A stretch of DNA of 32,000 nt, taken from Dickeya solani IPO 2222. Its GTDB lineage: Bacteria; Pseudomonadota; Gammaproteobacteria; Enterobacterales; Enterobacteriaceae. The notes under the pieces were generated by a model, which was not told the DNA's origin, made no database searches, and saw only the letters and a program-made list of their open reading frames with translations. The stretch is taken from the NCBI RefSeq assembly GCF_001644705.1, contig NZ_CP015137.1, positions 2,160,001 through 2,192,000 of the forward strand, in the 5' to 3' direction. This document shows, piece after piece, positions 26,228 to 30,850 of this stretch. The translations under genes and the position numbers were made by a program. The number at the start of each line of letters is the position of its first letter. Positions within the stretch are counted from its first letter, which is position 1.

Positions 26228-27388
26228 ATGGATATATCAGTAACCGAACTGGCGTTATTCCCGGCAGAAGAGCGTTCGCGCTGGACGGATTGGCGCTGGC
26301 AGCAGAAAAACGCGATTCGGGACGAACCGGCATTGCGGTCGGCCTGCGGCGGCTGGAGCGAGGAAGTGGCGCAGCATATCGCCAATAATCTCAAAGACCG
26401 CAAAATGCAGATCACGCCGTATTATGCCAACCTGATACGACAGGCTGCGTACACGGATATCGTCGATAATCCGCTGTGGCGTCAGGTGGTACCGTTTTGG
26501 CACGATGACGGCGTGACCGGTTACGATGGCGAATCAGAAAACTGGGAATTGTCGCATGAAATGAAAACGCCGATTTGTCAGCACAAATATGACAATCGGG
26601 TTATTTTACGCATGGTCAATACCTGTAATTCCTACTGTCAGTTCTGCTTTGAAGCACTGCGAACGTTAAAGGTTGATTCGGAAAAAGAAAATGCCGGGAG
26701 AAAAGCCTTTCAGGACTCGCTGGATTATATTCGTCAGACCCCCGCGGTGGAGGAAGTTATTCTCAGCGGCGGCGATCCGATGATGCTGACGGACGCCAAA
26801 CTGGATGAGTGTCTGGGCGCGATCCGTAATATCCGCGACTCCCTGTTGATTCGTATTCATTCCCGTTCGCTGACCTTTAATCCCTACCGTATTACCGATA
26901 CGCTGCTGGATATTCTCCGGCGGCACCGCGTCAACGCCTTCGGGGTTCATGTTTGTCATCCGTTGGAATTGAGCGACACCTTCCGCGACGCGGTAAAACG
27001 TATTCAGCAGGTGGTGCCGATTGTGTTTTCCAATATGCCGCTGCTGCGCGGCGTGAATGACAACGAGGAAACGCTCAGACATCTGTTTATCGAATTATAC
27101 CGCATGGGGGTCAAACCCTATTATTTATACCATTTTATGCCGTTTTCGCCGGGCGCTTCGGAATACAAGGCATCGATTCGCGACGCCATCGCCATCATGA
27201 ATCGGCTGAAACGCCGGGTATCCAATATTGCGTTGCCGGAATACGTGTTGCCCCACGCCAAAGGGAAATTCACCGTCCCGTTGCTCAGCGGCGTGGAAGA
27301 GATGCCGCAGTTTGAAGACATCGACGGAAGGCGTTTTTACCGTTTCACCAACTGGCAGGGCGATGTGTGCCGCTGGCAGGATAGCTAA
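26228..27388 (+). CDS. KamA-family radical SAM / PLP amino acid 2,3-aminomutase, atypical (non-lysine?) specificity
   Basis: 386 aa with GGAGG 6 nt upstream of the ATG. KamA-family motifs present are WTDWRWQQKNAI, MQITPYYANLI, the radical-SAM cluster CNSYCQFC, ILSGGDPMML, LLRGVNDNEE, VKPYYLYH and a PLP-lysine region PHAKGK. Confidence 0.85.
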   Translation: MDISVTELALFPAEERSRWTDWRWQQKNAIRDEPALRSACGGWSEEVAQHIANNLKDRKMQITPYYANLIRQAAYTDIVDNPLWRQVVPFWHDDGVTGYDGESENWELSHEMKTPICQHKYDNRVILRMVNTCNSYCQFCFEALRTLKVDSEKENAGRKAFQDSLDYIRQTPAVEEVILSGGDPMMLTDAKLDECLGAIRNIRDSLLIRIHSRSLTFNPYRITDTLLDILRRHRVNAFGVHVCHPLELSDTFRDAVKRIQQVVPIVFSNMPLLRGVNDNEETLRHLFIELYRMGVKPYYLYHFMPFSPGASEYKASIRDAIAIMNRLKRRVSNIALPEYVLPHAKGKFTVPLLSGVEEMPQFEDIDGRRFYRFTNWQGDVCRWQDS

Positions 27389-27410
27389 CGACGACACAGG
27401 GAGAAAAGGC

Positions 27411-28805
27411 ATGAAACCCGAAGCCATTTTGTTTGTGGATGTCAATGATACCGCGGTGCCGGTTTATACCTACCGCGAGCCGCACTTTGCCGCGGCGCGC
27501 CGACGGGGGCTGACGTGCCTGACGGCGGCGTGGAGCGGCCACCGGCAACGGCAGCGGCTGGAAGCGGACAGCGACGAGGTGTTCTGGTTGCCGGCGTTGT
27601 CGGTGGCGTCGCTGGATGCACTGCTGCGGCAACTGGCCGAGCGTTATCAGGTGCGGGCGGTGTTGTGTCACGCCGGTCACGCCTCGCCGCTGGGGCAGAT
27701 GGGGTGTCTGGTGGCGGACCTTTGTCAGCGTCACGGCCTGGTCTACAGCACGGCGCAGGCGGTGGACCGGTGTAATAACAAGTTCCTGATGCGTCAGGCG
27801 CTGACGCGGGCTGGCGTCCGGTCCGTAGCGTATGCGCTGTGCCATGATGAAGCGGAATTACAGCGTGAGGCCGAACGGGTCGGTTACCCGCTTATCGCCA
27901 AACCGCCCTACGGGGCGGCTTCCGCCTTTATTCGCAAATGCCTCGACTGGCCGCAGTTGCAGGCGTACTACCGCACCTTTCTCGAACAGTATGACCGGGC
28001 GTCTGTCGCCAGTTTTTATGGCGAATCACACCATTTCACCGATCTTGACGGGCATTCGCACCACTATGTGCCCGGCCGCTCCGTGCTGCTGGAGTCCTAT
28101 ATCGACGGCGTTGAAGGCAGTGTGGAGTGTGTGGCGACAGCACAGGCGGTTTTTCCGGTGCTGATTAATGAAAAACTGCTGCTGACCACGCAGGGCACCA
28201 CCGTGCTGGAAAATCTACTGATTACACCGCCGGTTGCCTTCTCCAATGTGCAGCAGCAACAGATTCGGGAATACGCCGTCGCTTGCCTGCAGGCGGTGGG
28301 GCTGACGTACGCCGTGGCGCATGTCGAGTTCCGTATGACGGCGTCGGGGCCGGTAGTCATTGAGGTCAATCCCCGGCTGGGCGGGCTGTATGTGAACGCG
28401 GCGTTTCAGGATATCGCCGGGCTGGACCCTTACGACCTGTATCTGTCGTTGTTGCTGGCGCAGGACGGGGTTGAGGCGTCGTTGCGCGCGGCCTGCGAAC
28501 GCGCCGCCCGCAATCGGCAGCACTATTCGATGTTTGCGATTTATCCCCCCGCCAGCGGCTATTTCCAGGGTTTTCAAGGTCTGCCGTGGGTCGAGCGTCA
28601 CCCGGCGGTACTGGCGTTTGGCCATTATCCGGTGGGGCATTACGTGGATGCCGATATCGAAGAGCATTACCTGTTCAAAGGGTGGGCCCGCGTTGCGTCG
28701 GCAGAAGACGCGCAGGCGCTGTACGACACGTTGCAGCACCACCTGCGCCCGATGATCGACCCGCTGCCGTCCGCCGTCGCCGCATCGCCCGCCGCGATAC
28801 GTTAA
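27411..28805 (+). CDS. ATP-grasp ligase, L-amino-acid-ligase (BacD/RizA/TabS) type
   Basis: The ORF opens at 27228, overlapping the upstream gene. The ATG at 27411 is preceded by AGGGAGAAAAGG and gives MKPEAILFVDVND (464 aa). ATP-grasp motifs are NKFLMRQAL, GYPLIAKPPYGAASAFIRKC and HVEFRMTASGPVVIEVNPRLGG. Confidence 0.82.
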   Translation: MKPEAILFVDVNDTAVPVYTYREPHFAAARRRGLTCLTAAWSGHRQRQRLEADSDEVFWLPALSVASLDALLRQLAERYQVRAVLCHAGHASPLGQMGCLVADLCQRHGLVYSTAQAVDRCNNKFLMRQALTRAGVRSVAYALCHDEAELQREAERVGYPLIAKPPYGAASAFIRKCLDWPQLQAYYRTFLEQYDRASVASFYGESHHFTDLDGHSHHYVPGRSVLLESYIDGVEGSVECVATAQAVFPVLINEKLLLTTQGTTVLENLLITPPVAFSNVQQQQIREYAVACLQAVGLTYAVAHVEFRMTASGPVVIEVNPRLGGLYVNAAFQDIAGLDPYDLYLSLLLAQDGVEASLRAACERAARNRQHYSMFAIYPPASGYFQGFQGLPWVERHPAVLAFGHYPVGHYVDADIEEHYLFKGWARVASAEDAQALYDTLQHHLRPMIDPLPSAVAASPAAIR

Positions 28806-29540: not shown

Positions 29541-29587
29541 GAACGTTAACAGGGAACACAACAGGGAACACAAAAAGGTAATCCGTC

Positions 29588-30850
29588 ATGGCTGAGCATC
29601 ATGATATCGACATGGGACAATCCCGACGCAATGCCGGGCTGATCATCGCCGCGCGTTTTATTTCCGATTTCGGCGCGTTTCTGAATATGGTGGCGCTGTC
29701 CACCTACGTGTATTTGCTGAGCAACAGCGTGGTGAACGTCAGTATTTTTCTGGCCTGCCGGGTAGCGGGCGGGCTGCTGGCGAGCCTGATCGGTACGCCG
29801 TTCTTCCGCCGCTTTCAGGGGCGTGCGTCGCTGGTTGGCTTCGACCTGCTGCGGGCGGCGTTGCTTTCATTGCTGCTGGTGCTGCCGCCAGCGTGGCAGT
29901 TGCCGCTGTTGCCGGCGATCGCGCTGGGGGTGGGGGTGGGGAACGCCATGTTTGCCATTGGGCTTAATAGCCAACTGCCTTATTGGGTGGCGGGTTCAAT
30001 GCGGCTGACCACCAACGCCTGGCTGACTTCGGTGGCGGCCAGCGGCGCGGTGCTGGGCAGCCTGGTGTCGGGGCTGCTGGTCGCCGGTTTCGGCTATCCG
30101 GTGGTGTTTGTGCTGAACGTGGCGACCTATCTGGCAGCCGCGCTGCTGATTCTGCCGTTGCGTATGGTCGAAAAACCGCAACCCCGCACGGGCCGGCGCG
30201 ATCGGCTCAGCGAGTGGCGTCAACTGAAAGCAGGGCTGCGCAGCGCGCCGATGCTGGCGGGCATGCTGATCGTCAGCATGGCGGACACCCTCGGCAGCGC
30301 CGCGCATAACGTGGGCTTTCCGGTGTTGTCCGCATTGATTTCGCCCGACAGCGCCAGTAAGACCATGGGGTTGATGCTGGCGCTGTGGGCGGTGGGCAAA
30401 TTCGCCGGCGCGCGGGTCAGCGGTTTTCTGCTCAGACAAGGGCAGCGCCGGGCGATGGAGCGGGCTTTTTTTATCGGCGTGGCGCTGATGTCTACCGGTT
30501 TTATTCTGACCTTCCAGCAAACCGGGCTGACGTGGCTGCTGGTGTTTGTGGTGTGGGCGGGCATTGGCGATGGCGTGGCGGAGGTCAGCCTGATTTCCCG
30601 CGCGCAGAGCGAACCGGAATCCCTGCGTCTGCCTATTTTCAGCCTGCTGACGTTGATGCAGATGACCGGGTTCGGCATCGGCATGCTGGTGGTGGCGCCG
30701 TTTTATGTGTGGTGGACGCCCGCGGCGGTGATTGTGCTGTTTCACGGTTTGCCGCTGTCCATGCTGCTGGTGGTACAGGGGTGGGCCTACCGTTATGGTC
30801 AGCGTACTCAGCTCGCCAAAGGTGATGTCGCGAAGCAGCGCGATGCGTAG
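29588..30850 (+). CDS. MFS efflux transporter, EntS/MFS_3-like exporter
   Basis: 420 aa and polytopic. The N-terminal pattern RNAGLIIAARFISDFGAFLNMVALSTYVYLL is typical of the EntS-type secretion-effector MFS group. It is the last gene of the co-directional cluster. Confidence 0.75.
   Translation: MAEHHDIDMGQSRRNAGLIIAARFISDFGAFLNMVALSTYVYLLSNSVVNVSIFLACRVAGGLLASLIGTPFFRRFQGRASLVGFDLLRAALLSLLLVLPPAWQLPLLPAIALGVGVGNAMFAIGLNSQLPYWVAGSMRLTTNAWLTSVAASGAVLGSLVSGLLVAGFGYPVVFVLNVATYLAAALLILPLRMVEKPQPRTGRRDRLSEWRQLKAGLRSAPMLAGMLIVSMADTLGSAAHNVGFPVLSALISPDSASKTMGLMLALWAVGKFAGARVSGFLLRQGQRRAMERAFFIGVALMSTGFILTFQQTGLTWLLVFVVWAGIGDGVAEVSLISRAQSEPESLRLPIFSLLTLMQMTGFGIGMLVVAPFYVWWTPAAVIVLFHGLPLSMLLVVQGWAYRYGQRTQLAKGDVAKQRDA

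Follow-up and report, generated by a model that had tools for sequence, protein, structure and literature searches.

The closest described relative of the locus reported here is the Pbo cluster of Pseudomonas syringae pv. phaseolicola, in which four consecutive genes, pboFGHI (PSPPH_4554-4557), form the tail of the nine-gene operon pboABCDEFGHI (Guardado-Valdivia et al. 2021, PMC8473136). In the published gene table, pboF was modelled on lysine 2,3-aminomutase, pboG on L-amino-acid ligase and pboH on isoleucine 4-hydroxylase, and pboI was listed as a major facilitator superfamily (MFS) transporter (PMC8473136). Within this operon pboF and pboG are co-transcribed with pboA-E; the operon is on at 18 °C and off at 28 °C, the expression of pboE, pboF and pboG depends on GacA, and polar insertions in pboA, pboC, pboE and pboG each abolish phaseolotoxin production (PMC8473136). 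The authors considered a direct biosynthetic role unlikely and favoured a diffusible regulatory or signalling metabolite; pboFGHI was not treated as a separable module, and a narrow distribution was reported from nucleotide searches (PMC8473136). Both this 2021 paper (PMC8473136) and a 2024 review (PMC11278893) propose roles for Pbo and report no product. Here we describe four genes (the cassette) at positions 26228-30850 of a 32,000-nt stretch of the Dickeya solani IPO 2222 genome (contig NZ_CP015137.1, positions 2,160,001 to 2,192,000; hereafter the window). At the gene level the cassette is a further member of the published pboFGHI family, and on balance we read it as one pboFGHI-orthologous operon that encodes a self-contained pathway for a small, secreted, amino-acid-derived molecule.

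The four open reading frames (ORFs) all lie on the plus strand and are separated by gaps of 22, 15 and 47 bp, as the initial annotation had stated and as the ORF coordinates confirm. The first (26228-27388) encodes a 386-residue protein resembling KamA-family 2,3-aminomutases, which use radical S-adenosylmethionine (SAM) and pyridoxal 5'-phosphate (PLP) chemistry; the second (27411-28805) encodes a 464-residue ATP-grasp enzyme of the L-amino-acid-ligase type; the third (28821-29540) a 239-residue PF10014 Fe(II)/2-oxoglutarate (2OG) dioxygenase of the isoleucine dioxygenase (IDO)/BsmA type; and the fourth (29588-30850) a 420-residue MFS transporter of the 12-transmembrane type, presumed to be an exporter. 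They are the orthologues of PboF, PboG, PboH and PboI, respectively. A P. syringae contig found through its ligase homologue shows the exact Pbo layout. Compared with the proteins encoded there, those of D. solani have identities of 69, 52, 47 and 65%, with alignments that cover at least 95% of each protein; these values are in the range seen for other Pseudomonas cassettes. The order and orientation of the four families agree between the two loci, and the spacing is tight or overlapping in both; in other hosts the cassette genes are 2 bp apart or overlap. In contrast to this internal agreement, the surroundings differ. In P. syringae the four genes follow a non-ribosomal peptide synthetase (NRPS), a ketosynthase III (KSIII), a carrier protein and a second MFS gene in a 34.8-kb genomic island, whereas the D. 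solani set is free-standing and is preceded by an intergenic region of its own (0.8 kb), and none of the pboA-E and pboK-P genes of the 16-gene Pbo cluster, which include NRPS, polyketide synthase (PKS) and carrier-protein genes, was found within 10 kb. Phaseolotoxin production is not known from D. solani. The gene combination had been thought to match no characterised pathway, which is right biochemically but incomplete, since the combination had already been described as pboFGHI with mutant and expression data.

The four D. solani proteins are identical to GenBank ANE75498-ANE75501, and their public names are generic everywhere. Close copies of the cassette are present in D. dadantii 3937, D. 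fangzhongdai, D. zeae, D. oryzae and D. undicola. The ligase or MFS gene is apparently split in two D. solani assemblies (GCA_013339845 and GCA_013334165; L002 and L003). We rejected these as pseudogenes because many neighbouring genes (frc, oxc and MBOAT) are likewise split or fused in the same two assemblies, which makes assembly indels the likelier cause. A literature match for a Dickeya aminomutase concerned hemL and is irrelevant to the cassette.

Other described systems share parts of the cassette. The Hil operon of Pantoea ananatis, P. syringae and Xenorhabdus shares the PF10014 dioxygenase HilB, the PF13535 ligase HilD and the MFS exporter HilE, and its proposed product is a dipeptide antibiotic that is built with a hydroxylated amino acid and then exported (Smirnov et al. 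2013, PMC3684760). Only the Hil operon contains the PF13640 dioxygenase HilA, whose gene stands in tandem with hilB, the short-chain dehydrogenase HilC, a LysR regulator (hilR) and a solute-binding protein (hilP), and it has no radical-SAM aminomutase; the D. solani cassette lacks these accessory genes and has only the PF10014, PF13535 and MFS parts in common with it. The antibiotic pathways built on L-amino-acid ligases, those of bacilysin (BacD/YwfE), rhizocticin (RizA), dapdiamide (DdaF) and tabtoxin (TabS), also combine a tailored amino acid with a ligase and an exporter, and their ligases share the ATP-grasp fold and catalytic motif with the cassette ligase. However, the cassette ligase is only 14-19% identical to these enzymes and scores ~37 bits against the BacD and DdaF equivalog models, whose cutoffs are 840-850, and these pathways have neither a radical-SAM aminomutase nor a ligase-fused PF10014 enzyme. 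Likewise, the cassette aminomutase shares the CxxxCxxC motif, the PLP lysine and the overall fold with KamA/AblA, BlsG (acting on arginine), Eam (glutamate) and EpmB (elongation factor P, EF-P), while it differs from KamA/AblA by Pro/Pro/Glu substitutions, by the missing zinc site and by the probable lack of the C-terminal domain. At the pathway level, the locus is a variation on the theme of amino-acid tailoring, L-amino-acid ligase and exporter, with an uncharacterised aminomutase subfamily.

The reach of the cassette was surveyed by a ligase profile scan with one genome per species, which returned 58 loci. About 50 of these carry all four genes in the same order and orientation, and they are spread over alpha-, beta- and gamma-Proteobacteria. 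The hosts include Dickeya, many Pseudomonas and Xenorhabdus, Burkholderia, Caballeronia, a metagenome-assembled genome (MAG) of Neisseriaceae, Francisella, Cysteiniphilum and other Thiotrichales, Pseudescherichia and Rhodobacterales. Chance is far from sufficient to explain this four-gene arrangement. Over 20 loci, the matrices of pairwise identity for the four proteins correlate with one another at r = 0.92-0.95, indicating that the four genes are inherited together. The contexts of the cassette are many and unrelated, several different ones being found even within Pseudomonas and within Xenorhabdus, and clustering of all flanking ORFs gave no further conserved flank genes beyond within-genus synteny. 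The single match among 72,556 plasmid records was a 3.2-Mb Burkholderia replicon. The initial annotation had proposed a check of neighbourhood conservation for the four families, and the outcome is a co-inherited unit in about 50 species. What is new here is that the cassette is recognised as an autonomous, widely distributed module.

The aminomutase carries the NCBI name 'KamA family radical SAM protein' and scores 196.9 bits against the KamA-family model TIGR00238 (cutoff 199.2). Its sole PDB relative is the lysine 2,3-aminomutase of Clostridium subterminale (CsLAM; 2a5h, E 9e-42), and its scores for the lysine (TIGR03820), arginine and glutamate equivalogs are about equal and fall far short: 210 bits (cutoff 525), 198 bits (cutoff 600) and 197 bits (cutoff 650), respectively. 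We aligned 17 cassette aminomutases with CsLAM, E. coli EpmB and two other KamA paralogues. The CxxxCxxC radical-SAM motif is invariant in the 17 cassette proteins (C133, C137 and C140 in D. solani), and the lysine of 'GKF', part of an invariant 'GK', is the candidate PLP lysine and matches K337 of CsLAM given a loop that is two residues shorter. In the 2005 crystal structure of CsLAM, Asp293 and Asp330 reportedly bind the side-chain amine of the lysine substrate, and Arg134 its carboxylate. In all 17 cassette proteins both aspartate positions are occupied by proline, and the Arg134 position is a glutamate within the motif CQFCFEALRT. Cys268 of the CsLAM zinc site is absent as well, and the 386-residue protein stops shortly past the equivalent of residue 341, so the C-terminal zinc-binding domain is probably missing. 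The cassette aminomutase represents a distinct KamA subfamily without the lysine-binding aspartates.

The nearest KamA relatives, which are 44-51% identical in an exhaustive HMMER search, carry the same active-site signature. Natural fusions occur among them, with an alanine racemase domain (above the NCBIfam alr cutoff), with a HisC-like aminotransferase or with a 2-hydroxyacid dehydrogenase resembling phosphoglycerate dehydrogenase. The clusters around these fused sister-clade proteins variously hold a Ddl-like ligase, an L-amino-acid-ligase-type ligase and a haem-oxygenase-like protein (PF14518), and an NRPS or a SAM-hydrolase/halogenase-like protein is found in single clusters only. The clusters look like uncharacterised pathways for beta-amino acids. 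The fusion partners and cluster contexts point to a role of the subfamily in specialised metabolism and to a free alpha-amino acid, drawn from the pool of 2-oxo acids, transaminases and racemases, as the substrate, and away from lysine, arginine and glutamate. Alanine or a similar small neutral amino acid is offered as a lead only; engineered alanine 2,3-aminomutases form part of the basis for this idea. The sister-clade fusions include proteins on the metagenome contigs L073, L075 and L077.

The ATP-grasp ligase matches the Pfam families PF13535 and PF02655, and its best PDB sequence matches are L-amino-acid ligases (30vh, BacD and BL00235). Its AlphaFold model has a predicted local distance difference test (pLDDT) score of 92.7. 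The top seven Foldseek matches of this model include 3vot, 3wnz, 3vmm, 3wo1 and 4wd3 (BL00235, YwfE/BacD and RizA), ahead of biotin carboxylases; the best match has an E-value of 1.6e-28 and TM-scores of 0.74/0.83, and the phosphoribosylglycinamide synthetase 4dim stands at rank 6, between BacD and RizA. The E-x-N-x-R-x-G-G motif (E318, N320 and R322) and the typical ATP-grasp lysines are invariant in 19 ligase homologues. The protein has the three-domain ATP-grasp fold and the Mg/ATP motif that place it among the L-amino-acid ligases, and from its modelled structure we infer that it would form a dipeptide or an amide.

The dioxygenase scores 132.2 bits against PF10014 (cutoff 23.1, E 2e-38), and its PDB matches are the isoleucine 4-hydroxylase IDO (6lnh) and its relatives. 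The 2-His-1-Asp triad and the arginine that binds 2OG (H157, D159, H213 and R229) reach at least 97% conservation across 38 orthologues. In three Xenorhabdus species, a Francisella and a Caballeronia, the ligase and the dioxygenase are encoded by a single ORF of 694-709 residues with the dioxygenase at the C-terminus. By the Rosetta-stone argument, these fusions, found in at least three lineages, indicate that the two enzymes act together. The family labels given at the outset to the aminomutase, ligase and dioxygenase were upheld by the hidden Markov model and PDB searches, and, with their key residues kept, all three proteins look catalytically competent.

Taken as one pathway, the KamA-like enzyme would take a free, non-basic amino acid and shift its alpha-amino group to C3, yielding a beta-amino acid, as the enzyme's family and active-site residues suggest. 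The ATP-grasp ligase would activate a carboxylate as an acyl phosphate and join it to an amine, giving a dipeptide or an amide, a step predicted from its fold and motifs. The dioxygenase would hydroxylate either the building block or the ligated product, its physical coupling to the ligase being shown by the gene fusions, and the MFS protein would export the product. The product may be a hydroxylated beta-aminoacyl amide or dipeptide, and the exported molecule would most likely act extracellularly as a signal or an antimetabolite. Speculatively, the beta-shift and the hydroxylation might fall on the same amino acid. In most genomes, including that of D. solani, the module works on its own, and in P. 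syringae and P. palleroniana it is attached to larger clusters of the NRPS/PKS type. The logic first put forward for these genes, in which a free amino acid is tailored, ligated and exported, agrees with the enzyme families, which belong to a real co-inherited unit.

Several points weigh against a self-contained pathway of this kind. The glutamate at the Arg134 position suggests that the ligand may not be a simple free amino acid, or that the enzyme may not be a classical aminomutase. No product has been reported for any member of the cassette family, and the Tox-minus phenotype cannot be assigned to pboFGHI alone because the insertions were polar and lay in a nine-gene operon. In addition, no immunity gene, peptidase or dedicated regulator was found travelling with the cassette, which weakens its interpretation as a Trojan-horse antibiotic. 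The direction of transport by the MFS protein and the expression of the operon in D. solani are both presumed. Finally, the cassette lies at the 3' end of larger clusters in two Pseudomonas lineages, a position that fits the supply of a building block rather than of a final product.

This last point bears on the main rival reading, in which the cassette is a sub-pathway that supplies or tailors a beta-amino-acid or dipeptide block for a larger NRPS or PKS product, which we regard as unlikely although several loci speak for it. In P. syringae the genes for an NRPS adenylation/condensation protein, KSIII and a carrier protein precede the cassette, which closes the pboABCDEFGHI operon. In P. palleroniana (L016, 20-8668) and Pseudomonas sp. 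NFXW11 (L052) it lies 3' of a larger co-directional cluster that encodes a ketosynthase, two AMP-binding enzymes, a nicotianamine-synthase-like protein, a hotdog dehydratase, a short-chain dehydrogenase/reductase, an arylamine N-acetyltransferase and another ATP-grasp enzyme, so that the cassette follows a ketosynthase/AMP-binding cluster there. This is the second case, after Pbo, of the cassette joined to a larger cluster. The sister KamA clade also adjoins an NRPS. However, in D. solani and in most of the ~50 genomes the 10 kb around the cassette are free of NRPS, PKS and other biosynthetic genes, the flanks are wholly different between lineages, and the cassette always comes with its own transporter.

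That transporter could in principle work in the opposite direction. Its sole Pfam family is PF07690 (MFS_1), even at E <= 10, it matches TIGR00900 (H+ antiporter family) weakly, at E 4e-24 and below the cutoff, and no PDB relatives were found for it. The initial annotation had called it EntS-like, a label that has to be withdrawn since the protein does not match the EntS family model PF05977 (MFS_3). In the Rhodobacterales cassettes a different MFS protein takes this place. The protein presumably exports the product of the pathway; the direction of an MFS transporter is unreadable from sequence, and the D. solani cassette has a catabolic flank, the oxalate genes frc and oxc, so that an importer serving the uptake and conversion of an external amino-acid-like compound, for catabolism or detoxification, may be envisaged. 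We consider this very unlikely because an ATP-consuming ligase is anabolic, the cassette has no conserved companion deaminase, dehydrogenase or hydrolase that would complete a catabolic route, the transporter comes closest to the model of a drug:H+ antiporter family, and the flanks vary between hosts.

The enzyme set also invites comparison with protein modification. EF-P beta-lysylation relies on the aminomutase EpmB, the ligase EpmA and the hydroxylase EpmC, and the triad of aminomutase, ATP-dependent ligase and hydroxylase in the cassette parallels these three enzymes. The cassette aminomutase scores 174.6 bits against the EpmB model, the cutoff of which is 369, and some ATP-grasp enzymes, such as RimK, act on proteins. 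In contrast, the cassette ligase belongs to the ATP-grasp enzymes and is of the L-amino-acid-ligase type, unlike EpmA, a paralogue of lysyl-tRNA synthetase, and unlike the RimK and graspetide types; the hydroxylase belongs to PF10014 and is not EpmC; the lysine-binding aspartates are absent; and the transporter is strictly conserved. The upstream regions speak against the maturation of a ribosomal peptide: these are regions in which no small ORF is conserved across genera and only within-genus DNA similarity was found, and a ribosomally synthesized precursor peptide encoded upstream was rejected on this ground. A role in modifying a protein or a ribosomal peptide is thus highly improbable. A beta-amino-acid-based metallophore or osmoprotectant can be given hardly any weight either: archaea use KamA-made beta-amino acids as osmolytes, the transporter weakly matches the rhizoferrin exporter FslB and several Pseudomonas cassettes lie near PepSY_TM and ZnuA-type metal-uptake genes, but no Fur or Zur box better than 5 mismatches was found upstream in any genus, the metal-gene neighbourhood is limited to one Pseudomonas synteny group, and an exporter is ill-suited to a compatible solute.

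Several of the surveyed loci showed further features around the cassette. In one Pseudomonas synteny group (L015, L021, L056 and L063), a small subunit of the Aconitase_C/LeuD-like type lies directly 5' of the cassette. In L063 a co-directional large subunit of the aconitase family comes before it, giving a LeuC/LeuD-like pair (4368-6397), and the PepSY_TM and ZnuA-type genes stand further upstream, as within-genus synteny only. On two alphaproteobacterial MAG contigs (L048, 4572-5468; L051, 10001-12895) we observed a SAM-dependent methyltransferase 3' of the cassette, and one of the two contigs carries a second ligase-dioxygenase pair; these extras suggest a lineage-specific elaboration of the product. 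A second, different cluster (~10000-20300) was found in L053-L055, L058 and L062, which represent Pseudomonas khavaziana and the strains Leaf48, ACN8, REP124 and QTF5. It contains a distant ligase homologue (30-32% identity), an asparagine-synthetase-like gene, a TauD/clavaminate-like gene, a MATE exporter and an aminotransferase, together with a KamA protein that has the usual C-x-R-K motif and an aspartate at the Asp293 position, and a second KamA-like protein.

The base composition of the D. solani cassette is uneven. The aminomutase gene has a GC content of 52.5%, compared with 62.4% and 62.7% for its neighbours, and this difference had been taken as a sign of mosaicism. The lower GC content was confirmed, but the mosaic interpretation was not, because the same trend is seen in other GC-rich hosts. 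In most of the GC-rich Pseudomonas and Caballeronia hosts sampled, the aminomutase gene is the GC-poorest of the cassette, while in AT-rich hosts it is equal to or richer than the other genes. The GC content of the cassette follows that of the host: values for single genes lie between 0.24 and 0.30 in the AT-richest host and between 0.56 and 0.66 in Caballeronia. The aminomutase is also the most conserved protein of the cassette, with a mean pairwise identity of 0.71 compared with 0.53-0.66 for the others. The conservation and the tracking of host GC content make protein constraint a better explanation of the low GC content than a mosaic origin of the aminomutase gene, which we rejected after the host-by-host comparison.

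Within the D. solani operon, a purine-rich Shine-Dalgarno-like sequence precedes each of the four ORFs, and a consensus scan found no promoter-like site inside the operon. The internal terminator-like matches on the plus strand consist of short stems of 5-6 bp only, and their count is not far above the shuffled expectation. Downstream, an imperfect hairpin at 30888-30920, recognised in the sequence and its ViennaRNA fold, lies in the 95-bp gap between the convergent MFS and frc (formyl-CoA transferase) genes. This hairpin has no U-tract and fails the consensus scan for intrinsic terminators; it may be the end of the transcript.

The AT-rich intergenic and presumed promoter region upstream of the cassette spans 25429-26227 and has a GC content of 37.8%. 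A leader of ~740 bp had been noted before, in agreement with the 739 bp measured from the longest ORF of the neighbouring aminotransferase; measured from the annotated aminotransferase start, the leader is 799 bp long. Inside the region, Tandem Repeats Finder detected 4.9 copies of an 18-bp repeat at 25704-25791, with the consensus TTTTTCTCAAAAGAATAG. The array has one copy fewer in the Dickeya assembly CP136339, which has an identical KamA protein, and is largely absent from D. undicola and D. oryzae. The repeats may form a phased array for protein binding or act as a contingency repeat. The leader is poorly conserved between Dickeya species, save for the blocks that adjoin each flanking gene. 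No Rfam family matched the 0.8-kb leader at E <= 1, and a riboswitch or leader RNA in this region was dropped for this reason.

The genes next to the leader, a SerC-like aminotransferase (373 residues as annotated) and an Lrp-family gene (23834-24304), had been suggested to belong to the cassette. The aminotransferase starts at 25428 in the public annotation and at 25488 in its longest ORF, with its other end at 24307; the 20 extra codons overlap a 14-bp repeat of 2.9 copies (25451-25490), so the true start is uncertain. Comparison gave no support for the suggested membership. The two genes accompany the cassette in Dickeya only, and aminotransferase orthologues with 70-84% identity are solitary and cassette-free, in unrelated contexts, in Lonsdalea, Pantoea alhagi and Brenneria goodwinii. 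The two genes could conceivably still be co-regulated with the cassette locally in Dickeya. The aminotransferase fusions of the sister-clade aminomutases are mildly interesting beside this Dickeya neighbour. Further upstream, at ~19250-22941, we observed a trio of MBOAT, DUF459 and Ape1_N/GDSL esterase genes, typical of polysaccharide or peptidoglycan O-acetylation. Downstream, from 30946 to 32000, lie oxalate-catabolism genes, namely frc, a small PAS protein, a second CoA-transferase, oxc and an MFS gene. Both D. solani flanks are unrelated to the cassette.

The Tox-minus phenotype of the pbo mutants hints at a signal that switches on toxin production. We put forward, as a tentative idea that is more likely wrong than right, that the first enzyme is a natural 2,3-aminomutase with a specificity not recognised before, acting on alanine or another small neutral amino acid or on an aminoacyl amide, and that together with the fused ligase-hydroxylase pair it would yield diffusible beta-aminoacyl signals of a new class, which switch on toxin or virulence programmes and are common to plant-, insect- and amoeba-associated Proteobacteria. 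The pathway predicted for the D. solani cassette is of a familiar type and introduces no new biological principle. If our reading is true, one compact, portable operon makes a secreted metabolite in plant pathogens (Dickeya and P. syringae), biocontrol pseudomonads, symbionts of insect pathogens (Xenorhabdus), Burkholderia and relatives of Francisella. As a self-contained module of 4.6 kb, the cassette is unusually tractable for heterologous expression. Should our reading hold, the radical-SAM/PLP aminomutases would gain a new substrate class, and the phaseolotoxin field would gain a defined four-gene candidate for the unexplained Pbo requirement.

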